Shown here: positions 24,591 to 50,366 of the stretch, in pieces
Layout of the letters: each line of letters opens with the position of its first letter
Position numbering within the stretch: position 1 is the stretch's first letter
From: an uncultured Coriobacteriaceae bacterium
Lineage (GTDB): Bacteria > Actinomycetota > Coriobacteriia > Coriobacteriales > UMGS124
Direction: 5' to 3'
Length of the DNA: 64,000 nucleotides
NCBI GenBank assembly: GCA_900539345.1
Contig: UQBS01000001.1
Coordinates: 6,938-70,937 of the forward strand
Position numbers and translations under genes: made by a program
Notes under the pieces: model-generated
Seen by the model: the letters and a program-made list of their open reading frames with translations, nothing else
Database searches by the model: none
Told to the model about the DNA's origin: nothing

Positions 24591-24658
24591 CCCTGCCTGC
24601 CTTTCCTGCTGGGGCCGTGCGGCCCCGTGACTTCGGCCGTGCGGCCTCTTGCGTCAAC

Positions 24659-24685
24659 GAAAAAGGGCCCTCTCGGGCCCCTTTC
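24659..24685 (-). terminator. intrinsic terminator (GGGGCCC GAGA GGGCCC TTTTT on the minus strand)
   Basis: Hairpin plus T-run read directly. Shares a 21-nt identical block with 25062-25082. Confidence 0.65.
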
Positions 24686-25033: not shown

Positions 25034-25063
25034 GGTTGCTCTGCCCCTTTTGCTCATAGGTAA

Positions 25064-25092
25064 CGAAAAAGGGCCCTCTCGGACCCTCTCGG
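25064..25092 (-). terminator. terminator-like hairpin plus T-run downstream of the immunity gene
   Basis: GAGGGTCCGAGAGGGCCCTTTTTCG on the minus strand. Imperfect stem. Confidence 0.45.
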
Positions 25093-28119: not shown

Positions 28120-29504
28120 CAAAGCAGCTTCGCCTTGCCCCTCTTCTTCTTCGCCGGCGCAGTGGCCGCCGCCCAGTAGGCGAGCAGCGCCGCCTCGACC
28201 GGCGCGGGGTCCGCGTCGTCGGTGGCGCCGAACACCCACGCGCCGGCGGACTGGTTCTTCTTGACGCAGCCGAGGGCCGACGCCGTGAGATTCTCCTGGC
28301 CGAAGTGGGTCACGCCCCTGTTCGCCACCGCGTCGGCGAACATGGCCGTCGCCTCGACGAAGTTGCGCGGGGACGGCTCCTTCAGCACCCTCTGCGCCTG
28401 TTTGTCGCCCTGGAGCTCCGCCCTGACGATGGGGGCGCCCTGCACGCCGTACACGGCGATCGCCGAGGCGACGTCGGCGCAGCGCGCGAGCGTCCTGGCC
28501 ACCTCCTTCGGGCGGCCCTTGGTGACGCCCGCCTTGACCACCTCGACGTGCACGGGCCTGCCGTCGCACCTGACGGCGACCGCCACGGCGTAGGTCCCGA
28601 CGGCGCTGAAGGCCGCAGCGAAGAACCTCTCGCCGTCCGTTGGCTCCGTCTCGGCGCAGCGCGCCCAGTCGCCCGGGTCGATCGGCCTCTTCGCCGACAC
28701 GACGCGGAAGTAGCCCAGGCGCTCGCGCGCGAAGCTCTCGGGCGCCATCGAGGCGAGCTTCGCCTCGATCGTCCTCTCGTCGATGCGGATGCCCAGGCCC
28801 GGGTTTGTCGCGTACCACCTCTCGTGGTCCGTGACGTCGCCGACCGAGTCGACGGCCCACTCGCTCCAGCACGAGTAGGGCGAGCCGCCCGCGTGCGCCT
28901 CGGCGTGGATGCGGCTGAACACCTCGGCGCCGCACCCAGGGTCGGGCGGGGTGCCGAGGAAGATGCTCTGCGGGCTGCCGAGCGGGGCCGCGTCGTTGAG
29001 CGCCGAGAGGGCCTCGTACTGCTTGTCGGTGAGCTCCTGGGCCTCGTCGTAGATGATCGTGTCTCGCGTGTCCCCGCGGCCCGCCGAGTCCGTCCTGGTC
29101 ATGCACTCGATGGCGGCGCCGCTCTTGAACTCGATCGCGCGGCGGCCGTTTCCCCTGATGACCTTCTTCACGAGCCTGTTCAGGTCGCGGAACGGCGCGT
29201 ACGGGTCGTTCGCCTCGGTGCCGAAGAAGCCCTCGGTGAGGCGCTTGAAGACCTTCTCCGCCGTCTTGCTCTCGTGCGCCGTGTAGAGGATCGACTCGCC
29301 GAAGACCAGGACGCCCGGCAAGATTCTGCCGACCACGATGCCCGTCTTGCCGTTCTGGCGGGGTGCCCCGACGCCGGCGGTGACGCAGAGCAGGCGGCCT
29401 TGCGCGTCGCGGGCGAGCCAGTCGTTCATGATGTACTGCTGCCAAGGGTCCAGCACGTAGCGGTACGCCTGGCAGAGCTCGACCGACAGCGGGCCGTGCG
29501 TCAT
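28119..29504 (-). CDS. terminase large subunit
   Basis: APRQNGKTGIV Walker A and IIYDEAQEL Walker B. Start uncertain: ATG 29504 or GTG 29537. Confidence 0.9.
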   Translation of the reverse strand: MTHGPLSVELCQAYRYVLDPWQQYIMNDWLARDAQGRLLCVTAGVGAPRQNGKTGIVVGRILPGVLVFGESILYTAHESKTAEKVFKRLTEGFFGTEANDPYAPFRDLNRLVKKVIRGNGRRAIEFKSGAAIECMTRTDSAGRGDTRDTIIYDEAQELTDKQYEALSALNDAAPLGSPQSIFLGTPPDPGCGAEVFSRIHAEAHAGGSPYSCWSEWAVDSVGDVTDHERWYATNPGLGIRIDERTIEAKLASMAPESFARERLGYFRVVSAKRPIDPGDWARCAETEPTDGERFFAAAFSAVGTYAVAVAVRCDGRPVHVEVVKAGVTKGRPKEVARTLARCADVASAIAVYGVQGAPIVRAELQGDKQAQRVLKEPSPRNFVEATAMFADAVANRGVTHFGQENLTASALGCVKKNQSAGAWVFGATDDADPAPVEAALLAYWAAATAPAKKKRGKAKLL

Positions 29505-29550
29505 GGCGTAGGGAGGGCAGACGTGGTAGGTCGGCACCTGCGAGCCGACC

Positions 29551-29844
29551 CTAGGAGGCGAGGCCGCCCTTGAACTTGTAGATGATTCCATTGAGCGGGC
29601 TCTCCTCGTCCTCGGCGCCGCCCGCGCCCCTCAGCTCGCGGCGCAGCTTCACGCCGTCGAGCACCGTGACGGCGAGCGCCTTGGTGTCGCGGCCGGAGTT
29701 GCAGCTGTCGAGGAGCTGGCAGCACTTGGCGACCACCGCCTCGACCGTCTTCTCGTCGTCGCCCTCCAGCCAGGCCCGCTCGATGGGGCCGGCACGGCGG
29801 GGCGGCGGCCACGTCTCGCCTGTCAAGGTCAGCTGTTCGCCCAT
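29551..29844 (-). CDS. terminase small subunit (P27-like)
   Basis: 97 aa between HNH and TerL. ATG 29844 after TGGAG. Confidence 0.6.
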   Translation of the reverse strand: MGEQLTLTGETWPPPRRAGPIERAWLEGDDEKTVEAVVAKCCQLLDSCNSGRDTKALAVTVLDGVKLRRELRGAGGAEDEESPLNGIIYKFKGGLAS

Positions 29845-29860
29845 GGGCCGCTCCAAACGC

Positions 29861-29880
29861 AAAAGGCCCCTCGCGGGGCC
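29861..29880 (-). terminator. hairpin GGCCCC GCGA GGGGCC plus TTTT between the HNH and TerS genes
   Basis: Read directly on the minus strand. Confidence 0.45.
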
Positions 29881-33146: not shown

Positions 33147-33341
33147 CTACGGCTCGAACAGGCCCCTCGGGTCGCACCCCAGCACCTCCGCGAGCCTGCA
33201 CAGCTTGTCGAGGGTCATCGTCGACATCCCCCGGTCGGACACCCAGTGGCTGACGGCCTGGCGGGAAACCCCCATGGACTTCGCCAGCTCGCCCTTTTTC
33301 ATCCTCCGGTCGGCGAGCACGACCTCAAGCCTCGACTTCAT
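33147..33341 (-). CDS. small XRE/Cro-type HTH protein, paralogue 1 of 3
   Basis: 64 aa: MKSRLEVVLADRRMKKGELAKSMGVSRQAVSHW...LGCDPRGLFEP. Confidence 0.75.
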   Translation of the reverse strand: MKSRLEVVLADRRMKKGELAKSMGVSRQAVSHWVSDRGMSTMTLDKLCRLAEVLGCDPRGLFEP

Positions 33342-33536
33342 CTCCTGTACACTCCTTGTAAAGTGCCGCCTGTTTAAAACCAGAGGCGCCCGTGCGCTGC
33401 GCCCCCTGCGGGATGGGCGGGCCGACACACCGCCGCGATGCCCACGCCGGCGGCGTTTCGACGAGGGAGGCGTGTATGCCCGCCCCTCCCGAAGTGCCCG
33501 CCCCGCAGGGGGCGCAGGGCGCACGCGCACGCGCCG

Positions 33537-33788
33537 TCACGCGATCACCGCGACCTCTCGGAACTCGCAGCCGAGGCATGTGCCCACGACCCCGAGGACC
33601 TCGCGGGCGGCCCGCTCGTCGCCCTCGAACCAGACCACCCTGGTCTTCCCGGTGACGTCCTTCACCTCGCAGCACCAGCTGCCCGGGCCCAAGCCGCTCA
33701 CCCAGGCCCTGAAGCCGCCGTTGGTGCAGCTGAACTCGTAGCGCAGGTCCGTGTCCGCAACGCCGTGCGGGCGCAACGCCGCCCCCAT
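33537..33788 (-). CDS. hypothetical protein
   Basis: 83-aa track ORF that abuts the upstream gene. Confidence 0.45.
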   Translation of the reverse strand: MGAALRPHGVADTDLRYEFSCTNGGFRAWVSGLGPGSWCCEVKDVTGKTRVVWFEGDERAAREVLGVVGTCLGCEFREVAVIA

Positions 33789-33789
33789 G

Positions 33790-33960
33790 TCAGCACCTCG
33801 CGGGGGCGGGCGCCTTCGGCCGCTCCGCCGCCCTGGACTCGCGCCACGCCATGAAAATCGGCCACAACGCGTTCGCCATCACGGTCGCCCTCACGCTCTC
33901 GGGCGGTATGCGCGGTGCCTCTCCGCGATGCCGCGCAGGCGCCTCGACTGTCTCGTCCAT
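33790..33960 (-). CDS. hypothetical protein
   Basis: 56 aa. GAGGAGG RBS 5 nt upstream of ATG 33960. Confidence 0.45.
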   Translation of the reverse strand: MDETVEAPARHRGEAPRIPPESVRATVMANALWPIFMAWRESRAAERPKAPAPARC

Positions 33961-33962
33961 CG

Positions 33963-34172
33963 CTACCTCCTCGTCAGCAGCCATGCCGGCAGGCCCACGA
34001 AGGCGCCCGCCGCGAGCGCAAGCCCCAGCGCGTCGAAGAGCGCCGGGCACGCCTCGTCGAGCACCTGCGGCAGCACCACGCCGCCGACCACGAAAACCAC
34101 GGCGGCGAGCGCGCCCGCGAGGGCCTCCGCCCACTCCCGGAACTCGTCAAACCATGCTGTGCTAGAATCCAT
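33963..34172 (-). CDS. small membrane protein (two predicted helices)
   Basis: 69 aa: MDSSTAWFDEFREWAEALAGALAAVVFVVGGVVLP... Confidence 0.45.
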   Translation of the reverse strand: MDSSTAWFDEFREWAEALAGALAAVVFVVGGVVLPQVLDEACPALFDALGLALAAGAFVGLPAWLLTRR

Positions 34173-34239
34173 CCCGTCATCTTCCCTTCGATGGTGACCA
34201 TGGCCCCGGCGAGCTGCTATCTCGCGCGGGGCCGCTCTT

Positions 34240-34434
34240 TTACGGCTCGAACAAATCCCTCGGGTCGCACACCAGGGCGTCAGCGACGCGGCAGAGCTTG
34301 CCCACCGTGAGGCCGGCCATGCCCTTGTCGGTGCACCACTTCCCCACCGCCTGCGGGCGCACGCCCACGTCATCCGCCAGCTCGCGCTTCTTCACGCGCC
34401 TTTCCGCCAGCATGTCCTCCAACCTCGACTTCAT
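34240..34434 (-). CDS. small XRE/Cro-type HTH protein, paralogue 2 of 3
   Basis: 64 aa. GGAGG RBS. Shares a 49-nt identical block with paralogue 3. Confidence 0.75.
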   Translation of the reverse strand: MKSRLEDMLAERRVKKRELADDVGVRPQAVGKWCTDKGMAGLTVGKLCRVADALVCDPRDLFEP

Positions 34435-34719
34435 CGCACAACCTCCGTTCTCGTTGTTCATCTGTCCGCCCCGTGCGTAGACTCCCGTTTATCCGCCGAA
34501 AACAGGCGGTGCCCGGCGCGTGCCGGCGCCGGGCGGCCTATTCCCGAGGAGATTGGAGACTCCATGGCCAAGAACATCCACAAGCCCGGAGAGGACAACC
34601 AGACCCCGGAAGGTGGGTCGAGGTGGGGCCTCGTGGCGGGGAGGTCAGCAACCCCCGCGTCGTGCACATCGGTCAGGGGGACAGGCTCCCCTCGACCCAG
34701 CAACCCGGCAGGGGATGGG

Positions 34720-34893
34720 TCAGGAAATAGCGCCGTCGGAGGGCCCCGAGAGGGGCCTTCCCTCTATACGCATCCTCTTGCGAGACAGGCACCACGAGCG
34801 GTTGAAAAGCTCGAGCTGGATCCAAGACTCGACCCAGAGCACACCGTCCTCCTCGTACTTCGTCATGTAGTGCCGCAGCGGCGATGGCCACAT
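34720..34893 (-). CDS. hypothetical protein
   Basis: 57 aa. GGGAGGGAGG RBS 7 nt upstream. Confidence 0.45.
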   Translation of the reverse strand: MWPSPLRHYMTKYEEDGVLWVESWIQLELFNRSWCLSRKRMRIEGRPLSGPSDGAIS

Positions 34894-34916
34894 GCGACCA
34901 CCTCCCTCCCTGAGCC

Positions 34917-35111
34917 TCACGGTTCGAACAGATCTCTCGGGTCGCACCCCAGCGCCTGCGCCACGCGGCAGAGCTTGCCCACCGTGAGGCCGGCCATGCC
35001 CTTGTCGGTGCTCCACACGTGCACGGCCTGCCTGTGCACGCAGAGCTCCCGCGCCAGGGCGGTCTTCGTCACCCGCTTCTCAGCGAGCACGACGTTCAAC
35101 CTCGACCTCAT
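34917..35111 (-). CDS. small XRE/Cro-type HTH protein, paralogue 3 of 3
   Basis: 64 aa: MRSRLNVVLAEKRVTKTALARELCVHRQAVHVW...LGCDPRDLFEP. Confidence 0.75.
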   Translation of the reverse strand: MRSRLNVVLAEKRVTKTALARELCVHRQAVHVWSTDKGMAGLTVGKLCRVAQALGCDPRDLFEP

Positions 35112-35421
35112 CGCCGTCCTTCGCCCCCTTCGACATCTCCCATAGGCGGCCGGCGCTCTCCATCTCGAGGCGCTCCTCGCGCCTGGCCTGGTCCCTGACC
35201 CTCTCTGCGCGCTCGCCGAGCCGCGCCGACACGGTCAAAAGCGACTGGTGGCACCAGCGGAGCACGGAGCCGAACTGGTCCACCTCCAAGTAGTGCATCC
35301 TGTCCGCCGCGCTTTGGATGCACCCGGCCGCGTCCCTCAGGTACCCGGCGGCCTCCTCAAGCTCCTCGGCGCCCATCGGCGCCGACATGCGCCTGTAGCA
35401 CGGCGCTCCCTCGTCACTCAT
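35080..35421 (-). CDS. hypothetical protein
   Basis: 113 aa, helical and charged. In frame with track ORF 35080-35745. Confidence 0.45.
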   Translation of the reverse strand: MSDEGAPCYRRMSAPMGAEELEEAAGYLRDAAGCIQSAADRMHYLEVDQFGSVLRWCHQSLLTVSARLGERAERVRDQARREERLEMESAGRLWEMSKGAKDGDEVEVERRAR

Positions 35422-36228: not shown

Positions 36229-36327
36229 CTCTTATAACGCGCAATTCTTTCGCGTGCAGTTAGCGCGTAACCACGCCTGCATACTAACGTACGATTTGCG
36301 CGTAGTCAACGATTGGATTGGACTGGG
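36229..36327. promoter_or_regulatory. divergent early/lysogeny control region with three ACGCGC-core operator-like sites
   Basis: AACGCGCAA at 36236-36244, TAGCGCGTAA at 36261-36270, TTGCGCGT at 36296-36303 (reverse complement of ACGCGCAA). Confidence 0.45.
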
Positions 36328-36549
36328 ATGGACTTCGGCAAGAGGCTTCGCGCCGTTCGCATGAACCGCGGGCTCACCCAACAGCAGACCGCCGACACTG
36401 CCGGCGTCTCGCTGCGCGTCTACCAGAACTACGAGCAGGGGACGCGCAGGCCGACTTTCGAGTGCCTTGCCCTGCTGTGCAGGCTCTTCAACGTCAGCTC
36501 TGATTATCTCCTTGGGCTTTCTGACGAAGAACGCGCTGGTGGACGCTGA
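36328..36549 (+). CDS. XRE-family HTH regulator (73 aa)
   Basis: LRAVRMNRGLTQQQTADTAGVSLRVYQNYEQG HTH. Confidence 0.75.
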   Translation: MDFGKRLRAVRMNRGLTQQQTADTAGVSLRVYQNYEQGTRRPTFECLALLCRLFNVSSDYLLGLSDEERAGGR

Positions 36550-36703
36550 ACATGTCCTCCAGTGAGTCCCAGATTTCGAAGTCGCCGGTGCGCTCGCCGG
36601 CCTCGATGTTCTGGTAGTACCGCAGGCTTATCCCCAGCCTGTCCGCCACCGCCTGCTGGGTCATGCCGGCCTTCGCGCGGGCCGTCTTCAGGTTGTCGCG
36701 CAT
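36494..36703 (-). CDS. XRE-family HTH regulator (69 aa)
   Basis: LKTARAKAGMTQQAVADRLGISLRYYQNIEAG HTH. Its 3' end overlaps the convergent 36328 gene by 56 nt. Confidence 0.7.
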   Translation of the reverse strand: MRDNLKTARAKAGMTQQAVADRLGISLRYYQNIEAGERTGDFEIWDSLEDMFSVHQRVLRQKAQGDNQS

Positions 36704-36735
36704 AGCGTCACCCCCTCTCGATTGGAGTTGCTGAC

Positions 36736-37224
36736 ATGACATCGCCAGACGCCGACAAGGTCGCCCGCAGCATCGACCGGCTTGCCGACAAGGTCGCGAG
36801 CCTCGACCGCAGCCAGAGGACGCAGGTCAGAAGGCCAGGCGTCCCCGACATATCGCGAACGCTCACCGACGAGGAGGCCGACGAGCTTCGCCTGCTCATC
36901 GACGCTGGCGGCTCCATCGGCGAGCGCTGCGACTCGCGCTCCACGCTGCCCGACGGCTCACCAGACGAGACGCTCAGGGGCATGTGGCTAGAGCTTGCCG
37001 ACATGGGCCTGCTCGTCGCACTCGAGATGGCCGACGGCTCCGTCCGCGTCTGGTCGGTGACCACGCGCGGGCACTGGGCCGCCAAAAAGCTCGAGTCGGA
37101 GCGCAAGCGCGCCGCGGACGAGCAGAAGAGGCGAGACCGCCACGACTTCCGCGTGGAACTGGTCGGCGCGACCTCTGGCCTTCTTGGTGTCGTTCTCGGC
37201 TACGTGCTTGCCAGGTTCTTCTAG
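36736..37224 (+). CDS. hypothetical tail-anchored membrane protein (162 aa)
   Basis: TGGAG RBS. C-terminal GATSGLLGVVLGYVLARFF helix. Confidence 0.55.
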   Translation: MTSPDADKVARSIDRLADKVASLDRSQRTQVRRPGVPDISRTLTDEEADELRLLIDAGGSIGERCDSRSTLPDGSPDETLRGMWLELADMGLLVALEMADGSVRVWSVTTRGHWAAKKLESERKRAADEQKRRDRHDFRVELVGATSGLLGVVLGYVLARFF

Positions 37225-37322
37225 CCGAGCAGCTTCGCGATGATGACGCCGAGCGTGAATCCGGCCAGCGAAAACAGCGCGCCGAGATAGGCGAGCTTGT
37301 GCGTGTGGTCAGGCTCCTTCAT
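37221..37322 (-). CDS. 33-aa hydrophobic peptide (MKEPDHTHKLAYLGALFSLAGFTLGVIIAKLLG)
   Basis: Strong GGAGAGGAGGTGG SD 4 nt before the ATG. Single TM helix. Its stop overlaps the convergent gene stop in a CTAG palindrome. Confidence 0.5.
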   Translation of the reverse strand: MKEPDHTHKLAYLGALFSLAGFTLGVIIAKLLG

Positions 37323-37340
37323 GGTGCCACCTCCTCTCCG

Positions 37341-37394
37341 GCAGGACTCGAACCTGCGCCCCGTCGCGGGGCGTCTCCCCTTTCCGGCCAGGGG
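37341..37394 (-). other. tRNA-like fragment / structured leader: three adjacent hairpins including an exact T-arm consensus
   Basis: Minus strand: CCCCT-loop-AGGGG, CGCCCCG-CGA-CGGGGCG, GCAGG-TTCGAGT-CCTGC. No acceptor stem, D arm or 7-nt anticodon loop could be built. Confidence 0.5.
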
Positions 37395-37503
37395 TGTCGG
37401 CCATGTCACCGCGCCACCTCGCGACGCGGGATTTCAAGGTGCGGTAGTGCACGTCACTCGCGGGGAAGCCCCAGTTCCCTCGTGTGCATGGCTGGCCGCC
37501 TCC

Positions 37504-37854
37504 TTAGACTGCCGGGGCGAGAAGGGGGGCGACAGCGTGCTGGGCGGCACCGGCGAAGCGGTCGACCTCGGCGTAGGGGGATGCGGCGGCAGACTGGGCG
37601 GTGCCGGAGGCCGTGCGCGGATCGCGTCGGGACGGAGCGTCCAGGGAGATGCCGCACAGGTCGTTCGGCGTGCAGCCGAGGGCCTGCGCCAGGCGGAACG
37701 CGGTCTTGAACTGCGGCAGCATCGCGCCGCTCATGTACTTGCGAACGGCGTCGACGGAGCAGCCCGTCTCACGCGCCAGGCGCTCGGCTCCCATGCCAGA
37801 GAGGTCCATGTAGGCCTTCAGGCGACTCGGGAAAATCTCTTCCAAATCCGACAT
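37504..37854 (-). CDS. XRE-family HTH regulator (116 aa, CI-like candidate)
   Basis: GMGAERLARETGCSVDAVRKYMSG HTH. Divergent from 38004 across an AT-rich gap. Confidence 0.7.
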   Translation of the reverse strand: MSDLEEIFPSRLKAYMDLSGMGAERLARETGCSVDAVRKYMSGAMLPQFKTAFRLAQALGCTPNDLCGISLDAPSRRDPRTASGTAQSAAASPYAEVDRFAGAAQHAVAPLLAPAV

Positions 37855-38003
37855 TGGTACTTCCTCCTAATAATAAGTCCGTAAACCGTACTTCTGACTC
37901 TGCAGAATAGATACGCTTTACGAACTTGTCAATACTTTTCTGCCAATTAAGTTGATTCATATACACGTTTTTGGTAGATTTCTCGCCATAGGAGGTGAAG
38001 CCT
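37855..38003. promoter_or_regulatory. AT-rich divergent intergenic region between two HTH regulators
   Basis: Visibly AT-rich 149 bp between opposed start codons. Confidence 0.5.
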
Positions 38004-38402
38004 ATGGACAAGGAGTACACCTTGCGCCTGAGAGAGATTCGAAAAGCGAAACAACTCACTCAAGACGACTTGGCTTCAAAGATTGGAACGACCAAACGAA
38101 TTGTTGGCAGTTGGGAGAGGGAGGAAGCGGCCATGTCCCTCTCCGACGCCGTGGACTGCGCGAAGGCGCTGGGCTGCACGCCGAACGACCTGTGCGGGTG
38201 GGACGAGGGCGGGGACGCCCCCGCGCCCGAGGTCGCGTGCCGCCCCGACGACCCCCTCAAGCGGCAAGTCGTGGACGCCTACGACTCCATGACGCAGGCG
38301 GGCCGGGAGTCCCTCGCCGGCGTGGCCAAGGGCCTGAGCGCCCTCCCCGAGAACCGCCCGGGGGACGCACGTGATCGCGTTTCGGCCAAGGACGTCGCGT
38401 AG
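38004..38402 (+). CDS. XRE-family HTH regulator with C-terminal extension (132 aa)
   Basis: AGGAGGTG RBS. LTQDDLASKIGTTKRIVGSWERE HTH. The tail VVDAYDSMTQAGRESLAGVAKGL parallels the 7870 protein. Confidence 0.75.
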   Translation: MDKEYTLRLREIRKAKQLTQDDLASKIGTTKRIVGSWEREEAAMSLSDAVDCAKALGCTPNDLCGWDEGGDAPAPEVACRPDDPLKRQVVDAYDSMTQAGRESLAGVAKGLSALPENRPGDARDRVSAKDVA

Positions 38403-38499
38403 CCGCTGACGTGCGGACGGAAAATCGGCGGGCGGGGCTTCCGTGACGGTTTGGTGCGTTGCATACAATTTATCGTTACGCTAAATTGTAAGGAGCAAA

Positions 38500-38844
38500 A
38501 TGGGATTGAATCATGAGAGGAGCCATCCGACACACTCGCTCGACGAGGCGCGACGCCTAGCTCATGAAGGCAAGCTGACCGTCAACAGGCGGGCGCGGGA
38601 CTTCATACGGAACCGCCACGGGCGCAACGACAGCGCCTGCTTCGTCGCCGGCCTGCTCGACGCCATCGACCCGCAGGACTTTTACAAGTCGGTCGAGCTC
38701 GATGTCATGCCGGGTTGCTGGGGCGACGTGTACCGTGGCGTCGAGTACGAGGGCGAGGAATGGTACGTGAAGTTCACCGTCAGGGAGGACGGCACGGCAT
38801 CGCTGTGCGTCCTGTCGGCGAACTGGGAAGGCTACCTACATTAG
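38500..38844 (+). CDS. mqsR: MqsR-family type II toxin
   Basis: Aligns by eye along E. coli MqsR: HPTHSL..., DFYKS, WGDVYRG, WYVKFTV. Confidence 0.8.
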   Translation: MGLNHERSHPTHSLDEARRLAHEGKLTVNRRARDFIRNRHGRNDSACFVAGLLDAIDPQDFYKSVELDVMPGCWGDVYRGVEYEGEEWYVKFTVREDGTASLCVLSANWEGYLH

Positions 38845-38853
38845 GAGGACACG

Positions 38854-39363
38854 ATGAGGTGCTTGGAATGCGGCGCCGAGATGAGGCACACCGCCGAGGC
38901 CATGACGGAGGCGTACCGGGGCGAGGAGTTCACGGTCGATGGAATCGACCGGTGGGTCTGCGACGCCTGCGGCAACGACGAGATGCAGGTCTCCGAGGCC
39001 GAAAGGCTCTCCCGCGCCCTGGCGCGCGAGTACGCCCGTGCCCACGGCCTTCTCGCGCCGGACGAGGTGAAGGAGCTGCGCAAGTCGCTCGGCCTCACCC
39101 AAAGGGAGTTCGAGAGGCTGCTGGGCGTGTCCTCGCCGACCGCCAGCCGCTGGGAGACCGGGGCCATGCAGCAGTCCATGACCGCGAACAGGCTGATGGC
39201 GCTGCTCAGGGACTGCCCCGAGGCAGCCGAGCAGCTCATGGAGATGGCCGAGATTCACAAGGCCCCCGTCGCGGTACCCCTGGGGGTCACGGCCGCAGTC
39301 GGCTCCTCGGCGTTCGGCGGCGTATCGGGCTCGAAGTTTTCAGTTGTGGTCGGAAGGGCGTGA
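38854..39363 (+). CDS. mqsA: MqsA-family antitoxin (zinc ribbon + XRE HTH) with extended C-terminal tail
   Basis: CLECG...CDACG zinc ribbon and LRKSLGLTQREFERLLGVSSPTASRWETG HTH, plus about 45 extra hydrophobic/Gly-Ser residues. Confidence 0.8.
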   Translation: MRCLECGAEMRHTAEAMTEAYRGEEFTVDGIDRWVCDACGNDEMQVSEAERLSRALAREYARAHGLLAPDEVKELRKSLGLTQREFERLLGVSSPTASRWETGAMQQSMTANRLMALLRDCPEAAEQLMEMAEIHKAPVAVPLGVTAAVGSSAFGGVSGSKFSVVVGRA

Positions 39364-39818
39364 TGGTCGTGCCAGGCTATATCTCGAATGCGCGAGTGGA
39401 GTCCGTGAGGCTCGCGGAATGCTCCGTGTGGACGAACCCCGACGGTCCCGGCGTGTCGATGTCGGCCGAGGCGAACGTCGAGATGGGGCAGCTCTCCCAG
39501 CTTCCCGCCGACTCCGACGGCTGGCTGACCTACGCGGCGTCGGTCGGGATAACGGTGCAGCTCGTCGACGAGGAAGGCTCGATGCCGAGGGCGAGGGCGG
39601 CCGTGAAGCTCGTCGGCGTCGTGTCCGTGCCCGCAGGCGAAGCCGACCCCGCGCACGCAGCCAAGGTGGCCGCCGCCGCGTCGATGTACCCGCAGGCGCA
39701 GGCCTACGTGTCGATGCTCTCCTCAATTGCCCAGGTCGGCACGATGCCGACGCCCGTCATAGACCCAGAGGGGCTCGTCTCCGCCGTCGACGCGCTCGTT
39801 GCCGCCAACGGGCAGTAG
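39363..39818 (+). CDS. SecB-like chaperone candidate (third component of a TAC module)
   Basis: 151 aa. ATG overlaps the mqsA stop (TGATG). AAVKLVGVVSV and ASMYPQAQAYVSMLSSIAQVGTMPTPVIDP parallel the SecB / Rv1957 core segments. Confidence 0.55.
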   Translation: MVVPGYISNARVESVRLAECSVWTNPDGPGVSMSAEANVEMGQLSQLPADSDGWLTYAASVGITVQLVDEEGSMPRARAAVKLVGVVSVPAGEADPAHAAKVAAAASMYPQAQAYVSMLSSIAQVGTMPTPVIDPEGLVSAVDALVAANGQ

Positions 39819-40047
39819 GCGTGCCTCCTTCGCGGGGCTGGCTTGACGGCGCGGCGAGTGCGGTATAGTTTTTGGCAGTGACACGGCAGGGGGTCTCCAT
39901 GGAGCCCTGCCCAGGGCGGCTGCCTCCGGGTGGTCGCCCTTTTTCGTTTGGAGCCAGTAACGCAGCACTGAAAGGCCTGCTGGGAATCATTTTACCGACC
40001 TCGGCAAAATGACCGTCGCGCCCTACAATCGCGCCGAGGAGGCGCGC

Positions 40048-41034
40048 ATGCTGAGAGTGAGAAGGAAGATGGAAAGAGAGAGGGTTGTCTATAGGATTTG
40101 CGGCGTCGACCCTGAGACCGGGGTCGGCGCCCAGGAGCTGGCGAAGGTTCTGTCCAGCTTCAGCGGCCTCGTGCGCGAGACCGTCACGGTGCTCGGGTGC
40201 CAGGACGAGGTGTCCATCAAGGTGCGGCCCTTCCGCGAGGGGTCGTTCATAGTCGAGTTCGCGACCGAGGTCGCCAGCGGCCTGCTCGGGTTCCTCTCGT
40301 CCAGCGAAGGAGGGGCACTGAGCACCGGCCTCGCGATTCTCGGCTTCCTCGGCGGAGGGTCGTTCACGCTGCCTGCCATCGTCCGAAAGGTGAGGGGCCG
40401 CGTCGACCGTTTCACCGACAACGGCGACGGTACATACACCTATGGGTCGGGCGACGACGCCGTCACGGTCGGCGAGGACACGCACAGAGTCGTGCAGTCC
40501 CAGAAGGTCGCCGAGCAGTACACCACGGCCGCCATGGGGCCGATTGTCGGCAGCATCAACGCCCAGAGCGTCCAGATATACGTCGGCGACCCGCACACCC
40601 CTCCGGCGGCGGGGCACCAGGCGACGTTCACGCCTGAGGACGGGGAGCCCTTGGCGACCTACCGCAAGGTGGCGACGGGCAACTCCGACATGCTTGACGA
40701 GGTCACCTCGGAGAAGACGAGCTTCGAGATGCACGGCGTGATCCTTCACCCGGCGTCGGGCTCCTACGACGGCGCGGAGCGCGGCTACACCTTCACCACG
40801 GGCGACGGCGCGGATGCGACAACGTACAGGAAGGTCGCGATAGCGGACGAGGAGTTCCGTGAGAGGCTCGAGCGCGCGGAGGTGAGGCTCTTCGCAAAGG
40901 ACACGCTCAAGGTCGACATGACGGCCGTGCAGAGGGTGTCCAAGACCCGCGCGGTGACGTGGGCCTACACGATCGACAAGGTGCACTCGTACGAGCCGTA
41001 CAGACCGTGCCAGCAGGAGGGCCTCGGCATATAG
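40048..41034 (+). CDS. hypothetical 328-aa protein of unknown function (lysogeny-arm cargo)
   Basis: GAGGAGG RBS before ATG 40048 (the track ORF begins at 40009). Gly-rich hydrophobic segment and an internal TYRKVA duplication. Confidence 0.6.
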   Translation: MLRVRRKMERERVVYRICGVDPETGVGAQELAKVLSSFSGLVRETVTVLGCQDEVSIKVRPFREGSFIVEFATEVASGLLGFLSSSEGGALSTGLAILGFLGGGSFTLPAIVRKVRGRVDRFTDNGDGTYTYGSGDDAVTVGEDTHRVVQSQKVAEQYTTAAMGPIVGSINAQSVQIYVGDPHTPPAAGHQATFTPEDGEPLATYRKVATGNSDMLDEVTSEKTSFEMHGVILHPASGSYDGAERGYTFTTGDGADATTYRKVAIADEEFRERLERAEVRLFAKDTLKVDMTAVQRVSKTRAVTWAYTIDKVHSYEPYRPCQQEGLGI

Positions 41035-41429: not shown

Positions 41430-42905
41430 ATGGACATGCAGGGCAAGGCGAGGACGGCCGTCGTCTATGCGCGCTTCAGCTGCTCGAAGCAGCGCGAGGC
41501 GTCCATCGACGACCAGCTGCGCGAGTGCCGCGCGTGGTGCGAGCGCGAGGGCGTCGAGGTCGTGCGGGAGTACTGCGACTATGCCGTGTCGGGCCGCACC
41601 GACGAGCGGCCGGAGTTCCAGCGCATGATCTCCTCGGCGGGGGAGTCCGACCTCGTCGTCGTGTACATGATGGACCGTTTCTCGCGCAACGAGTTCGACG
41701 CACCGATATACAAGCGCGAGCTGCAGCGCCATGGCGTGCAGCTGGTCTCCGCGCTCGAGCGCATCCCAGAGTCGCCGGAGGGCATCATCTACGAGAAGCT
41801 CCTCGAGGGGCTCGCTGCCTGCGAGAGCCGCAAGACGTCCGTGCGCACGAGGCGAGGGATGGAGGGAAATGCGCTCAAATCCATGCCGAACGGCGGCCAG
41901 CGGCCCTACGGGTACCGCAACGTCGGCGGGAAATACATTGTGGACGAGGCTGAGGCCGCCGTCGTGCGCGAGATCTTCGAGCGTCGCGCCTCCGGCGAGA
42001 CGAACCACCACATCGCCGCCGACCTGGCTGCACGCGGGGTGGTCAATGCCCAGGGCAGGCCGATGAGGGACCAGGTAGTCGGGAAGATCATCAGGTCGCG
42101 CAGGTACGTGGGAGAGTACCGGTGGGGCACGATCGTGACCCCGAACGCCTTCGAGGCCATCGTGGACGAGGCGCTGTGGGAGTCCGCAAACGCCAAGGTA
42201 GCCGCCAGGAGCCGCGACCGCGAGAGGCAGGACTACAGGGAGTACCCGCTCGTCGGCAAGGCCCTGTGCGCCGTATGCGGCCACGGGCTTTCGGGCGAGT
42301 CTGCCCACGGCAGGGGCGGCGTGCGGTACGACTACTACACCTGCAGCGCCGGCGGCGCGCGCAACCACATTCGGAGGACCCGCGCGCAGTGGCTCGAGAG
42401 AGCCGTGGTGCAGGGCATCCGCGCCATGCTGTCCGACCGCGCCACGGCCGAGCACATCGCAGGGATGGTCGTGGAGTCCAAGACCGGCGCCGCCGTTGAG
42501 CGCCGTCGCGCTGGCATCCAGGCCGACATCCGCAAGGCGGACGACGCCATGCGCAATTTGATCCGCGCCATCGAGGAGGGGCTGTACACGCCTGCCATGA
42601 GGGAGAGGATGGACGAGCTGCAGGCCGCCAAGGCGCACGCCGAGGCCGAGCTCGCCATGGTGCAGGAGACCACCGTCACCGTCGAGGAGTTCACGGAGTT
42701 CCTGCTCTCCGGCACCTCGATGAGCCACAGGCAAATCATCGACTGCTTCGTGTGGTCAATTGTATTGGACAATGATGACGCCGTCGTGACTCTCAACTGG
42801 GACACCCGACAGGCACAAAAAAACGAACCAGCTCGTATCGAACTGGTTCGTAAGAATAGCGAATGGCTCCCCGAGCAGGGCTCGAACCTGCAACAACTCG
42901 GTTAA
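41430..42905 (+). CDS. large serine recombinase (prophage integrase)
   Basis: AVVYARFSCSKQ catalytic Ser region, recombinase domain, CAVCG...YYTC zinc ribbon, coiled coil. The last roughly 30 codons run through the tRNA-Asn terminator and into the tRNA gene. Confidence 0.9.
   Translation: MDMQGKARTAVVYARFSCSKQREASIDDQLRECRAWCEREGVEVVREYCDYAVSGRTDERPEFQRMISSAGESDLVVVYMMDRFSRNEFDAPIYKRELQRHGVQLVSALERIPESPEGIIYEKLLEGLAACESRKTSVRTRRGMEGNALKSMPNGGQRPYGYRNVGGKYIVDEAEAAVVREIFERRASGETNHHIAADLAARGVVNAQGRPMRDQVVGKIIRSRRYVGEYRWGTIVTPNAFEAIVDEALWESANAKVAARSRDRERQDYREYPLVGKALCAVCGHGLSGESAHGRGGVRYDYYTCSAGGARNHIRRTRAQWLERAVVQGIRAMLSDRATAEHIAGMVVESKTGAAVERRRAGIQADIRKADDAMRNLIRAIEEGLYTPAMRERMDELQAAKAHAEAELAMVQETTVTVEEFTEFLLSGTSMSHRQIIDCFVWSIVLDNDDAVVTLNWDTRQAQKNEPARIELVRKNSEWLPEQGSNLQQLG
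42817..42850 (-). terminator. intrinsic terminator of tRNA-Asn
   Basis: Minus strand CGAACCAGTTCG ATA CGAGCTGGTTCG followed by TTTTTTT. Confidence 0.75.
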
Positions 42906-42938
42906 CAGCCGAGTGCTCTACCATTGAGCTATCGGGGA
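42864..42938 (-). tRNA. tRNA-Asn (GTT), CCA encoded
   Basis: Hand-folded 75-nt cloverleaf: 7-bp acceptor TCCCCGA/TCGGGGA, anticodon loop CTGTTAA, T loop TTCGAGC. Confidence 0.95.
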
Positions 42939-43704: not shown

Positions 43705-43792
43705 GTCGGAGTGGCGGAATAGGCAGACGCGCTAGCTTGAGGTGCTAGTGACCTTTACGGTCTTGCGGGTTCAAGTCCCGCCTCCGACACCA
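43705..43792 (+). tRNA. tRNA-Leu (GAG), long variable arm, CCA encoded
   Basis: Hand-folded: acceptor GTCGGAG/CTCCGAC, anticodon stem CTAGC/GCTAG with loop TTGAGGT, variable hairpin, T loop TTCAAGT. Confidence 0.9.
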
Positions 43793-44447: not shown

Positions 44448-44523
44448 TGGAGCGGACTACGGGACTCGAACCCGCGACCCCAACCTTGGCAAGGTTGTGC
44501 TCTACCAACTGAGCCAAGTCCGC
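44448..44523 (-). tRNA. tRNA-Gly (GCC), CCA encoded
   Basis: Hand-folded 76-nt cloverleaf: acceptor GCGGACT/AGTCCGC, anticodon loop TTGCCAA. Confidence 0.95.
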
Positions 44524-46505: not shown

Positions 46506-46661
46506 GGCCGCGCGGCACATCTGCCGCTTGCATTTCGCTTCTTTTCTGTCGGGGCCCGTTCCGGGATGGTGCGGGTCCCGCTTTGTGTTTAAGTGGGGGT
46601 CTCAAAGGGGTTGCGGCGCATCGGACGTGTCGTGATGCGCGGTACAAGCGGGGTGGTGGAC

Positions 46662-48599
46662 ATGGCTCAGGCACAGTTTGACAGGCATCTCAAGCCGGGT
46701 GACGCCCGCGCGGCCCTTGATCGCATCGCCTCGTCGCAGGCCTTCCAGGCAAGCCGTTTCTCGAGCTCGGTATACGAAGATGAGCCCATCCTGCGTACGG
46801 GAAGCCAGTTTCGCCGCGACGCGGAGTCATCGCGACCCTACCAGCTCATCCATCAGCTCGCACAACGCGAGGACTTGAGGTACGCCCCCGCGGCGAGGGT
46901 GTTCTATGAGCAGGCGCGCGCTCTTGCCGACTTCGACGGCACGGGCGACCCCACGGTGCCCTTCAAGTCATATTTCCCCACCTACCAGGCCATGAACGAC
47001 CGTCAGCTCTCGTCGTATCTGGCATGGCGCACCCAGGCCCGCAAGGGCGTCATCGCCGCCTCCACGGCGAGCTATGCGTTCGTCTATATCTACGAGCTGC
47101 TCATGGGCGTGGGAACGCAGGAGGGCCTGCCTGCGCTTGCAGCACTGACGTCCTTTTGGGTCGCCTGGAAGAAACAAGCCACGACAGATGCCGGTTTGCT
47201 CGACTTCTACCTGCACATCTGGCTGCGCGACTACATCGTGTACCATGGCCTCGACCGATCGCTTCTCGAGCGCGTGAGCGGTCCCGCCTCCCAGCGCGAT
47301 GTCGTTGACGTGTATGCCGCCGTTCCCGTGCTGCGCGAGGCTGAGGCGCTTGTGCTTGCCGGGGGTTCCCTTGCAGGTGACATGGCGCAGAAAACGTTTG
47401 ACGCCATGTGCCTGGCGTCGTCGTTTCGCCTCACGGGCTCAAAGTTCTACAAGGACTATCCGGCTGAGACGCAGGCCGTGACCTGCGGTGTCTTTGCGCG
47501 CTTGGTTCAGCATTGTGCCCATCGCCGCAAGGTGGGCTATGTCGACGGGCTGTTTGGCGCCGAGCAGCGCCGCGCCCATCCCATGTTTTACGGCGCCGTG
47601 TTCTATGCCCCACAGACCCATCCCGATGCCACGTACCGCGTGAGCGATTCTGAGGCGTACATCTGTCGTGACGGCACCTGGCGGCGCAAGGTGCCTTGTG
47701 CCGAGGAGACACGCAGCCGCGACCTGGGGCTTTTGATGCACACGGTGGATCACGAGATGCGTCGCATATGGGAGTACCCCAAGCAGGTGCGCGCCTACGA
47801 GGTGCCCCGCTACCTTGAGGGATTCGTTACCAAGGAGGCCACGGCTGCCCATGAGGCCTGGCTCGCGGCTCAGACTCCCAAGATTCATATCGACCGTTCG
47901 CTTCTGCGCGGTATTCGCACGGCCGCCGTCAAGACGCGCGAGTCGCTCCTGGTAGATGAGGAGCGAGCCGAGGAACCCGCGATGACGGGCGTGGGCGTTG
48001 CACCGAAGGCGCCCGCGACTGTGACTGCACCGGCCACGCCGAGCAAGGAAGACGGTCTGCATGCGGCATCCCAAGCGGGCGGGGCAATTGCGGCTCCTGG
48101 TTCGGGCACGGCCTCCATGGCGGGTGTGGCGGCTGACTCGAGTGCGGCCTTCTCGGCAGGCAAGGTGCCTGCGGCTCTCGCTTCTAGCATGGTTGCCACA
48201 TCGGGTATGGAGGCTGCTTCAGGCGTGGCTCGCATGGCAGGTGAGTCGACTATGGCTTCCACTTCGAATGCGGTTTCTGCGCTGGGCGCGTTGCCTGGGT
48301 TGAATGGACGTCCTGCGGCGGGCGAGGCAGATGCGGATTCTGCCTTGGACGTGGATCGCGCCACCTCCACTGAACCTTGTGGTCTCACTGCCTCTGAGCT
48401 GGCGTTTCTCCAGGCGCTCCTTGCCGGTGATGTGGCGGGCGCGAAGGCGGCAGTGGGTGTCGGCATGGTGAGCCTCATGGTGGACGCGGTGAACGAGAAG
48501 CTCTACGACGAGATCGGCGACGCCGCCATCGAGTTCGACGGCGACACCCCGCAACTTGTGGAAGACTATCGTCCCGATGTGGAGGAGCTTCTCTCGTAA
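46662..48599 (+). CDS. sngA: TerB-N / TerB-C domain protein (Shango SngA-like)
   Basis: FKSYFPTYQAMNDRQLSSYLAWR...SYAFVYIYELLMG fits TerB-N. C-terminal MVDAVNEKLYDEIGDAAIEFDGDTPQLVEDY fits TerB-C. Ala/Ser-rich linker between them. Confidence 0.7.
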   Translation: MAQAQFDRHLKPGDARAALDRIASSQAFQASRFSSSVYEDEPILRTGSQFRRDAESSRPYQLIHQLAQREDLRYAPAARVFYEQARALADFDGTGDPTVPFKSYFPTYQAMNDRQLSSYLAWRTQARKGVIAASTASYAFVYIYELLMGVGTQEGLPALAALTSFWVAWKKQATTDAGLLDFYLHIWLRDYIVYHGLDRSLLERVSGPASQRDVVDVYAAVPVLREAEALVLAGGSLAGDMAQKTFDAMCLASSFRLTGSKFYKDYPAETQAVTCGVFARLVQHCAHRRKVGYVDGLFGAEQRRAHPMFYGAVFYAPQTHPDATYRVSDSEAYICRDGTWRRKVPCAEETRSRDLGLLMHTVDHEMRRIWEYPKQVRAYEVPRYLEGFVTKEATAAHEAWLAAQTPKIHIDRSLLRGIRTAAVKTRESLLVDEERAEEPAMTGVGVAPKAPATVTAPATPSKEDGLHAASQAGGAIAAPGSGTASMAGVAADSSAAFSAGKVPAALASSMVATSGMEAASGVARMAGESTMASTSNAVSALGALPGLNGRPAAGEADADSALDVDRATSTEPCGLTASELAFLQALLAGDVAGAKAAVGVGMVSLMVDAVNEKLYDEIGDAAIEFDGDTPQLVEDYRPDVEELLS

Positions 48600-48725
48600 G
48601 GTTCACTTGCCTTGCGCGCTGTGTTGACTTGGCCCGCGGGGGCTTTTTGTCCGCTGCACTTGGTATCCTATCTGCGATTGCGCTTATCGGTGGGCTCAGG
48701 AGCTCGCCGGCAGAAAGGTTGCCCG

Positions 48726-50357
48726 ATGAACGCCAAAGCAAATGCCTCCAGTGCCGCCGACACCCCCAAGGTGCCCCGTCGCATCGCCTCGGTCATCATC
48801 AACTCCCTTAAGGGCGGTGTCGTGCCGCGCGTGGGCTTGCCGTACATCACCGTGGGTCGCCAGGCCGAGATTGAGGCGCTCCTGCACGACCTCGAGCTCG
48901 TGGGGGAGGGCGGCGCGTCGTTCCGCTTCCTCGTAGGCCGTTACGGTTCGGGCAAGAGCTTCTTGCTGCAGACCATCCGCAACCACGCCATGGGCAAAGG
49001 CTTCGTCGTGGCCGACGCCGACCTGTCGCCCGAGCGCCGCCTGCAGGGCACGAAGGGCCAGGGTCTGGCCACCTACCGCGAGCTTATCAGCAACCTTTCC
49101 ACCAAGACGCGCCCCGAGGGCGGCGCGCTCACGCTCATTCTCGATCGCTGGATTTCCAACGTGCAGATGGAGGTGGCTGGCGAGGGCGGCTTCGACCTGG
49201 CAAACCCTGCCGACCCCGCGTTTGCCGCCGAGGTCGAGAAGCGCATCTACGTGGTCATTCGCCAGCTGCAGGACATGGTGCATGGATACGACTTCGCGCG
49301 CCTGCTCGCCATGTATTTCCGCGCCTACGTGGAGTCCGACGACGAGACGAAGGCCAATGTCGTACGGTGGTTCCGTGGCGAGTACCGCACCCGCGCCGAG
49401 GCCAAGGCCGACCTGGGCGTGAACATCGTGATTGGCGACGACGACTGGTACGATTACATCAAGCTGTTTGCGAGCTTCCTCAAGGGCGCGGGCTACGCGG
49501 GCCTCGTTGTGCTTGTCGACGAGCTCGTGAACCTGTACAAGATTCCCAACGCCGTGGCACGCCAGTACAACTACGAGAAGATTCTCACCATGTACAACGA
49601 CACGCTCCAGGGCCGCGCGAGCTACCTGGGCATCATCATGAGCGGCACGCCTCAATGCGTGGAGGACCGCCGCCGTGGCCTCTACAGCTACGAGGCGCTG
49701 CGCAGCCGTCTGGCTCAGGGACGCTTTGCCAGCGAGGGCCATGTGGACATGCTTGCCCCTGTCATCCAGCTCCAGCCGCTGACCCCAGAGGAGCTGCTCG
49801 TGCTTGTGGAGAAGCTCGCCGACATCCATGCGGGCTTCTTTGGCTACGAGCGCGTCCTGCGCGAGGAGGACCTGGTGGCCTTCCTGCAGGTAGAGCTTGC
49901 GCGTGTGGGCGCCGACAGCCACATCACGCCGCGTGAGATCATCCGTGACTTCGTGGAGCTGCTCGACATCCTCTATCAGAACCCCGCGCTCACCCTTGAG
50001 GGGCTTGTGAATGACCCGGCGTTCTCCCAGCGTCCGGCCACCTTGCCGTGCGAGGAGGACGATTCCCGCGTGACGAGCACCACCGCGCAAGCGGGATTCG
50101 GGCAGGCTTTCGCCTCCCGTCCGACTGCGTCCGGCGCTCAACGCATCGCTTCTTCGAGCTCGACGTCTGCCGTCGCCGCGCAGGCGGCGCCGTCAGCGGG
50201 TCTTGGGCAGGTGGCCCCCGGTCGTTGCGCCCCGCAGTCGGCATCCTCGCTGTATGACGAGGTGATCCAGCCGACCGCCTCCGAGGTGCCTAGCACTCAG
50301 CGTGTGGCGGCCGAGCCGGTTGCGGCGCCGCGCACGTTCGCAGAGTTCACCATCTAG
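48726..50357 (+). CDS. sngB: P-loop ATPase, BrxD/DUF2791-like (Shango SngB-like)
   Basis: Walker A GRYGSGKSF, Walker B LVVLVDELVNL. Low-complexity C-terminal tail. Confidence 0.7.
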   Translation: MNAKANASSAADTPKVPRRIASVIINSLKGGVVPRVGLPYITVGRQAEIEALLHDLELVGEGGASFRFLVGRYGSGKSFLLQTIRNHAMGKGFVVADADLSPERRLQGTKGQGLATYRELISNLSTKTRPEGGALTLILDRWISNVQMEVAGEGGFDLANPADPAFAAEVEKRIYVVIRQLQDMVHGYDFARLLAMYFRAYVESDDETKANVVRWFRGEYRTRAEAKADLGVNIVIGDDDWYDYIKLFASFLKGAGYAGLVVLVDELVNLYKIPNAVARQYNYEKILTMYNDTLQGRASYLGIIMSGTPQCVEDRRRGLYSYEALRSRLAQGRFASEGHVDMLAPVIQLQPLTPEELLVLVEKLADIHAGFFGYERVLREEDLVAFLQVELARVGADSHITPREIIRDFVELLDILYQNPALTLEGLVNDPAFSQRPATLPCEEDDSRVTSTTAQAGFGQAFASRPTASGAQRIASSSSTSAVAAQAAPSAGLGQVAPGRCAPQSASSLYDEVIQPTASEVPSTQRVAAEPVAAPRTFAEFTI

Positions 50358-50366
50358 GCGGCCCCC

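Follow-up and report, generated by a model that had tools for sequence, protein, structure and literature searches.

A probable prophage-borne MqsRA-type toxin-antitoxin-chaperone operon with a remotely SecB-like third gene in a high-GC gut bacterium

Two toxin-antitoxin-chaperone (TAC) systems built on MqsR and MqsA have been described: Vcho-TAC of Vibrio cholerae RC385, where the MqsRA-chaperone type was defined and validated (Bordes et al. 2016; PMC5105189), and MqsRAC of Escherichia coli C496_10, which defends against phage T2 (Vassallo et al. 2022; PMC9519451). Here, we analyze a cassette of three genes (38500-39818) in a 64,000-nucleotide stretch of contig UQBS01000001.1 (the window, to which coordinates refer unless a relative's locus is named) and read it, with a probability of about 0.78, as a prophage-borne MqsRA-type TAC operon, that is, a chaperone-addicted MqsRA system. 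A preliminary description of this DNA had proposed such an operon and had stated that MqsRA TACs are on record, as the two validated examples bear out. The cassette has the gene order and the toxin and antitoxin families of both. Its host is a high-GC gut bacterium and, going by the relative with 59% chaperone identity, probably an Actinobacterium of the Coriobacteriales, whereas theirs are Proteobacteria; it is prophage-borne between a repressor and an integrase, unlike either system as compared; and its chaperone, set beside the Vibrio and E. coli TAC chaperones by description, escapes the Pfam SecB, NCBIfam, and PADLOC models. The chaperone-addiction (ChAD) element of Vcho-MqsA spans residues 136-176 (41 amino acids; PMC5105189), against 129/136-169 for the extension in the window.

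Other known systems share features with the cassette. The Mycobacterium tuberculosis TAC HigBA1-SecB(TA) (Rv1955-Rv1956-Rv1957) is also actinobacterial and has a SecB-fold chaperone like gene 3, but it belongs to the HigBA family instead of MqsRA, and Rv1957 is chromosomal. Its antitoxin has a disordered ChAD ending in Val-Ala, against Arg-Ala in the window and Ala-Ala in many relatives. HigBAC and CmdTAC of E. coli (Mets et al. 2024; bioRxiv 10.1101/2024.02.24.581848) are prophage-encoded, like the cassette. In both, aromatic short linear ChAD motifs dock on the SecB sheet and the chaperone doubles as a phage sensor; the trigger of HigBAC is the lambda major tail protein, a competitor of the ChAD for chaperone binding (same source). 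These two serve, by analogy, as the mechanistic template for the present cassette, although their toxins are HigB and the ADP-ribosyltransferase CmdT instead of MqsR, and the HigA ChAD is 96 amino acids long with four aromatic motifs, against two Phe in the shorter tail studied here.

The operon, its toxin, and its antitoxin

The window holds three closely packed plus-strand genes, the last two overlapping as TGATG, where the preliminary description had placed them. The operon and its flanking signals are as follows.

38464-38490 (27 bp), no strand: imperfect palindrome TACAATTTATCGT/ACGCTAAATTGTA, 10 bp in front of the start codon of mqsR
38500-38844, plus strand: mqsR-like toxin gene (gene 1), 114 amino acids
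38854-39363, plus strand: mqsA-like antitoxin gene (gene 2), 169 amino acids, including a C-terminal extension
38854-39258, plus strand: folded part of MqsA, residues 1 to about 135, an N-terminal zinc ribbon and a C-terminal XRE-type helix-turn-helix (HTH)
39259-39363, plus strand: C-terminal extension of MqsA, residues 136-169 (KAPVAVPLGVTAAVGSSAFGGVSGSKFSVVVGRA), with the stop codon; candidate ChAD element
39363-39818, plus strand: SecB-like chaperone gene (gene 3), 151 amino acids
39913-39950, plus strand: terminator-like GC-rich hairpin with T-run, 95 nt past gene 3

The first mark of a TAC is a single operon whose three genes follow one another on the same strand as toxin, antitoxin, and chaperone, and this arrangement is seen here. 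A gap of 9 nt separates gene 1 from gene 2, and the spacing of genes 2 and 3 is -1 nt, with the gene 2 stop TGA (39361-39363) sharing one base with the gene 3 ATG (39363-39365). Each gene has a Shine-Dalgarno-like element (AGGAG, AGGAGG, and GGAAGGG, respectively). In this genome of about 65% GC, third-position GC content (GC3) was used to tell real from shadow frames; it is 0.83, 0.90, and 0.89 in the called frames of genes 1, 2, and 3. A shadow open reading frame (ORF) in the frame of gene 3 (38715-39818, 367 amino acids) was rejected upstream of 39363: GC3 is 0.49 over 38715-39362, which is therefore non-coding in that frame.

The palindrome has 13-nt arms that are 92% complementary, and its core GTTTATCGTTACGCTAAATT is kept in a relative with 59% chaperone identity (L004), the flanks having diverged; it is a candidate operator through which MqsA may regulate its own synthesis. 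A sigma-70 consensus scan upstream of mqsR called no promoter, and a pair of elements read by hand (TTGCAT-17-TAAATT, 38459-38487) is not claimed as one, as transcription would start inside the Shine-Dalgarno element. Cotranscription of mqsR with the upstream repressor-like gene (37995-38402) is possible. The hairpin past gene 3 (12-pair stem, 8 GC pairs, tail TTTTCGTTTG) is a likely operon end, judged from a consensus match of which 1.6 are expected in the shuffled region.

Gene 1 matches the Pfam family MqsR_toxin (PF15723; E 5.6e-10; 39.9 bits, cut-off 26.2; model positions 2-89 of 95), and its residues 5-97 align with E. coli MqsR (PDB 3HI2). The similarity along the length of MqsR noted in the preliminary description holds in this alignment: DFYKS is identical, WGDVY corresponds to WQDVY, and YVKFTV corresponds to YLKITV. 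Residues K63, Y89, and R79 align with K56, Y81, and R72 of E. coli MqsR; among the tested variants of the latter, only K56A and Y81A abolish all cleavage (PMC9636575). The product is a predicted ribosome-independent mRNA endoribonuclease and, since the catalytic Lys and Tyr are retained, probably an active RNase.

Gene 2 passes the thresholds of PF15731 (MqsA_antitoxin; E 3e-17; 63.3 bits, cut-off 30) and TIGR03830 (E 3.7e-30; 104.3 bits, cut-off 61.8; residues 3-128), and its residues 2-126 correspond to the solved structures of E. coli MqsA (2KZ8 and 3GN5). The zinc-ribbon cysteines C3/C6 and C36/C39 are invariant or nearly so among 41 relatives, in agreement with the double CxxC and XRE HTH first described. 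In an AlphaFold2 (AF2) model based on these relatives, zinc ribbon and HTH reach a predicted local distance difference test score (pLDDT) of 96-98, as far as about residue 130.

Beyond the folded part, gene 2 carries a tail that lies outside every MqsA family model and structure matched: the models stop at 126-128, and no helix is predicted past residue 131. Residues from about 138 to 169 have a pLDDT of 43-54 and no predicted secondary structure. The tail KAPVAVPLGVTAAVGSSAFGGVSGSKFSVVVGRA has a grand average of hydropathy of +0.92, lacks acidic residues, and contains three basic ones along with the phenylalanines F154 and F162. The hydrophobic C-terminal extension of the preliminary description thus stands; its length of about 45 residues does not, the measured value being about 38-41. 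Close MqsA homologues of 132-136 amino acids have no tail, and tails in relatives run from 8 to 64 residues with variable sequence on a well-conserved folded part. A disordered C-terminal extension absent from two-component homologues, the second mark of a TAC, is therefore present here as predicted disorder. The extensions in Bordes et al. are likewise described as variable in length and sequence (PMC5105189). We regard the tail as a candidate ChAD, whose composition fits the properties described for ChADs (variable sequence, aromatic anchors, C-terminal aliphatic-Ala degron).

A SecB-like third gene behind tailed antitoxins

The third mark of a TAC, a SecB homologue as third gene, is present in gene 3 by fold, at a sequence score below the Pfam SecB threshold. 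The AF2 model (pLDDT, 84.7; predicted template-modelling score, 0.77) has four long antiparallel beta-strands, a 27-residue helix, and a C-terminal helix. The structural check proposed in the preliminary description, which had named an absence of SecB-fold similarity as grounds for giving up its interpretation, found that similarity: the top 19 Foldseek matches in the PDB are exclusively SecB or Rv1957, given below with template-modelling (TM) scores.

Ranks 1-19 except four Rv1957 chains: SecB of E. coli and Haemophilus influenzae (1QYN, 1OZB, 1FX3, 5JTL), TM 0.67-0.80, best E 3e-7
Ranks 4, 7, 17, and 18: chains of Rv1957 (TAC chaperone of M. tuberculosis) from 5MTW, a structure that includes the ChAD peptide, E 1e-6, TM 0.52-0.60
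Rank 20 onward: DUF1149-type proteins (2HNG, 2O2A), TM below 0.55

Fold and topology are those of canonical SecB (E. coli 1QYN, H. influenzae 1FX3; TM 0.72-0.80), the match to 1QYN scoring TM 0.72/0.80 at a Foldseek E of 3e-7. Rv1957 is matched at a lower TM (0.52-0.60) than E. coli SecB is (0.69-0.80). Alignment with canonical SecB is in register across the segments of strand 4 and helix 1. Profile search and hhalign confirm the parallels drawn in the preliminary description, with VKLVGVVSV opposite EVQQGGIFSI and MYPQAQAYVSML opposite LFPYARECITSM; hhalign places the gene 3 family against E. coli SecB at a probability of 76% over 100 columns, and gene 3/SecB identity is 15-16%. Canonical SecB is a stand-alone housekeeping gene, whereas gene 3 is translationally coupled to the antitoxin.

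Sequence searches give a sparser picture. Gene 3 has no match in Pfam, NCBIfam, PHROGs, PADLOC, or PDB sequences, and none by tblastn in deposited phage genomes; the PADLOC defence models match neither gene 1 nor gene 3 specifically and give gene 2 nothing beyond generic HTH matches. A word-indexed search returned three close relatives of gene 3, and an exhaustive profile search with HMMER, run over 1.84 billion representatives, returned 34; the family comprises about 34 clusters at 50% identity among the representatives searched (family alignment, 33 sequences). A profile search of the word-indexed protein database gave 17 members, none with a Pfam domain, and a 4-sequence chaperone alignment retrieved only one genome locus and one viral locus. 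The link from the family to Pfam SecB came only from divergent third genes at two loci (L018 and L027), which score 24.5 and 19 bits on the family hidden Markov model (HMM) and 20.6 and 14.6 bits on Pfam SecB (E 4e-4 and 0.03); these weak matches bridge the two. Taken together, model and profiles identify gene 3 as a remote homologue of SecB that current family models do not cover.

Tripartite toxin-antitoxin (TA) systems with a third component other than a chaperone exist, and gene 3 might accordingly be an accessory regulator or a second antitoxin (PaaR-PaaA-ParE or HipBST type). Its model is, however, a full-length SecB fold (TM 0.72-0.80) and not a DNA-binding or kinase-type one, and the antitoxin already has an HTH domain; we consider this reading the least probable of all. 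Another possibility is that MqsRA is an ordinary two-component TA and that gene 3, a moron with the SecB fold, works independently of MqsA, perhaps as a holdase for proteins of the phage or the host. Such a view draws on the want of detectable sequence-family membership and on the SecB-fold proteins carried by other phage genomes (structure-similar proteins occur among predicted viral proteins, some annotated as SecB). Against it stand the overlap of the gene 3 start with the mqsA stop and the distribution of the family, as follows.

Chaperone relatives at 95% (L001, L002, and L006), 59% (L004), 36% (L007), 31% (L010), and 30% (L017) identity all lie directly behind MqsR and MqsA genes, with MqsA of 169-204 amino acids. 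The trio is conserved in L004, L007, L010, L017, L020, L025, and L033, at chaperone identities of about 31-59%, and the same three-gene order recurs in at least 11 other lineages. L004 comes from a human-gut Coriobacteriales metagenome-assembled genome, and a 99%-identical copy lies on an IMG/VR viral contig. In a count that was also seeded from MqsA relatives, a gene of 145-155 amino acids begins within a few bases of the mqsA stop in 12/12 lineages whose MqsA tail has at least about 30 residues, and 11 of those 12 genes score on the gene 3 family HMM. Where MqsA is tail-less or short-tailed (L014, 136 amino acids; L035, 132; L022, 153; L026, 156), such a gene is found in 0/4 (one-sided Fisher P = 5.5e-4).

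Divergent genes of 145-148 amino acids lie behind other tailed MqsA (L018, 3004-3444; L027, 2964-3401; L039, 2931-3368; L037, 1608-2054, in locus coordinates), and some match both the family HMM and Pfam SecB below threshold. Since neither model is convincingly matched by the L037 gene, MqsA may be served by several subfamilies of chaperones.

The gene 3 family also stands behind tail-bearing HTH_3 antitoxins of HigA-like type, 127-128 amino acids long, in L012 and L013. The HigA-like cassettes, in locus coordinates, are as follows.

L012: 1324-2583
L013: 3200-4483
L009: 3-625 (upstream ORF cut by the contig end)

Tails in all three look disordered. The protein of 141-143 amino acids upstream of the L012 and L013 antitoxins has no Pfam, NCBIfam, or PDB match and is possibly a TAC toxin not described before. 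Service of a single chaperone family to more than one TA pair would accord with the known modularity of TACs (PMC5105189; bioRxiv 10.1101/2024.02.24.581848).

The family is thus seen only behind tail-bearing antitoxins, is absent where the tail is absent, and also follows antitoxins unrelated to MqsA, all of which speaks against an independent moron. Because gene 3 is coupled to mqsA, strictly tied to tailed antitoxins, and SecB-like in fold, the unrelated-gene and regulator readings both fit poorly, the former being very improbable as well, if a little less so than the latter.

The terminal motif, the proposed mechanism, and points against

A motif resembling [KR]-F-x-V-[VI]-x-G-[RK]-A-A closes many of the tails paired with the gene 3 family, in both MqsA and HigA-like antitoxins. 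It joins an aromatic, preceded by a residue that is basic or polar, to an aliphatic-Ala C-terminus. KFSVVVGRA at the C-terminus of the window MqsA is an instance of it. The tail endings are as follows.

Window MqsA: SKFSVVVGRA
P0039 (genomic context not looked up): SRFSIATGRA
L025: GKFNVVPGGKAA
L033: DRFSVIPGGRAA
L020: CFKVVKGALAA
L012: AFAVIEGRAA
L009: RFEVLGEAA
L013: AKVVRA

An aromatic residue in such a context is the type of anchor that docks ChADs on SecB(TA), and a Val-Ala or Ala-Ala end is the ClpXP degron of M. tuberculosis HigA1 and CmdA (bioRxiv 10.1101/2024.02.24.581848). By analogy, the motif may serve as both anchor and degron at the window locus. A joint reading of these observations would make gene 3 part of an unannotated SecB(TA) clade, specialized for the prophages and mobile elements found in Actinobacteria of the gut and in their relatives, that recognizes a compact [KR]-F-x-V-[VI]-x-G-(G)-[RK]-A-A-COOH in unrelated antitoxins (MqsA and HigA-like); the motif would merge a chaperone anchor with a ClpX-type degron, and the chaperone would be a sensor for superinfection immunity. 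We put this forward tentatively, at somewhat less than even odds.

For the TAC operon itself we propose the following mechanism. MqsR would cleave mRNA as an RNase and be neutralized by the zinc-ribbon domain of MqsA, and the HTH domain of MqsA probably represses the operon. Without the gene 3 product, the hydrophobic, Phe-bearing tail of 34-38 residues would make MqsA aggregation-prone, protease-sensitive, or both; with it, a SecB-like tetramer of the SecB-fold protein, made by translational coupling to mqsA, would hold the tail. Neutralization of MqsR would then depend on continuous free chaperone, and titration of the chaperone or a halt in its synthesis would free the RNase. In a superinfected lysogen, a protein of the incoming phage would draw the chaperone away from the tail by competition, which would release MqsR.

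Several points weigh against the TAC reading. The gene 3 sequence does not match Pfam SecB (PF02556; gathering threshold, 26 bits), only 1/33 family members reaches even E 0.23 against it, and the family profile matches E. coli SecB in the PDB at E 0.39. In the toxin, the position of E. coli MqsR Q68 is Gly, and K96 has no alignable counterpart. The co-occurrence sample is small and metagenomic (12 versus 4 lineages), and one long-tailed case (L038) was left out of the 12, being cut by a contig end. The terminal motif is missing or partial in the paired tails of L007, L010, and L017. Binding of the tail by the chaperone is a step that we infer, and the defence role is assigned by analogy with proteobacterial MqsRAC, HigBAC, and CmdTAC. 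On the other side, the toxin and antitoxin thresholds, the predicted-disordered tail, the SecB fold, and the co-occurrence of tail and third gene all support the TAC interpretation of the preliminary description.

Prophage setting, role, and significance

By gene content, the window contains a siphovirus-type prophage, with a tail fibre, a major tail protein, and a head protease among further minus-strand genes and several XRE-type regulators on the plus strand. Its landmarks are as follows.

9299-10048, minus strand: endolysin
17637-20621, minus strand: tape-measure protein
28119-29591, minus strand: large terminase
37995-38402, plus strand: repressor-like gene
41430-42905, plus strand: large serine integrase

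The cassette is read in the direction of both the repressor-like gene and the integrase, between which it lies, in what the preliminary description had rightly recognized as the lysogeny arm of a temperate phage; it is so placed for expression in the lysogen. In several different prophages, cassettes of relatives take the same place and direction relative to a repressor-like gene and an integrase, the latter of serine or tyrosine type, in otherwise different contexts; the cassette behaves as a mobile moron.

The role of the TAC in the lysogen is, by analogy with the E. coli systems, most likely abortive-infection defence against superinfecting phages. Classical TA modules stabilize mobile elements, and the TAC could instead serve prophage addiction, with prophage-free cells killed or arrested after segregation; its place in the lysogeny module beside the integrase and its labile, tail-bearing antitoxin would suit such logic. 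An integrated prophage is not, however, lost through segregation, the different integrases and the defence-candidate gene (PDC-S42-like, 40009-41034) that adjoin the cassette are typical of defence moron slots, and validated E. coli TACs work in defence (PMC9519451; bioRxiv 10.1101/2024.02.24.581848). We consider addiction the weaker alternative and unlikely, though clearly less so than the non-TAC readings above.

The candidate gene just named (plus strand, 341 amino acids) fills the gap between TAC and integrase and matches phrog_3243 (function unknown; 2e-20) and, partially, PADLOC PDC-S42 (8e-17). It is missing in the otherwise 95%-identical L001, so the gap looks like a variable moron or defence slot. 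A complete Shango defence system lies in the host flank just right of the prophage (46593-52829, plus strand), and L001 has the same Shango neighbours.

46593-48599, plus strand: SngA (TerB_N/TerB_C), PADLOC 4e-64
48612-50357, plus strand: SngB (BrxC/D-type ATPase), PADLOC 3e-188
50367-52829, plus strand: SngC (DEAD/Cas3-like helicase), PADLOC 5e-268

At its 3' end (stop, 42905), the ORF of the serine integrase runs 42 nt into a tRNA-Asn(GTT) gene (42864-42938, minus strand), which suggests integration into or beside the tRNA gene; tRNA-Leu (43705-43792) and tRNA-Gly (44448-44523) come after it. No attachment-site direct repeats were found around the tRNA-Asn and integrase end, as expected for an integrase of the serine type, nor a long one elsewhere in the prophage.

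Upstream of the cassette are four small XRE/HTH_3 genes on alternating strands (36313-36549, plus; 36494-36742, minus; 37504-37854, minus; 37995-38402, plus) and a strong promoter-like site on the minus strand (37932-37904, 10/12 matches); the regulator cluster 36313-38402 is probably the lysis-lysogeny switch. A 196-nt direct repeat occurs three times (33149, 34242, and 34919; 69-79% identity; within 33149-35114), perhaps as paralogous copies of an early gene or as a regulatory block present in triplicate. In the structural module, a 25-nt GC hairpin, AACGAAAAAGGGCCCTCTCGGGCCC, occurs three times in near-identical form (24656-24680, 25062-25086, and 29856-29880) and is terminator-like read on the minus strand. 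A tandem repeat of 9-nt period (12932-13021) inside a tail-fibre-like ORF (10629-13349, minus strand) is a possible collagen-like Gly-X-Y stretch.

MqsRA-chaperone TACs, their defence role, and prophage-encoded TACs are already known, and the window cassette is therefore an expected variation on a known type. What is new is modest: a SecB-like family unseen by Pfam, NCBIfam, PADLOC, and PHROGs, its presence in prophages of high-GC gut bacteria, and a terminal motif common to the tails of the two antitoxin families paired with it. Since current models miss the family, surveys based on Pfam SecB or PADLOC undercount TACs. These systems are a recently recognized class of anti-phage defence with the chaperone as sensor, and nearly all functional work on them comes from E. 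coli, Vibrio, and M. tuberculosis; the window locus shows the architecture in prophages of high-GC gut bacteria, and the terminal tail motif offers a concrete, testable candidate for a recognition and degron element common to two antitoxin families.

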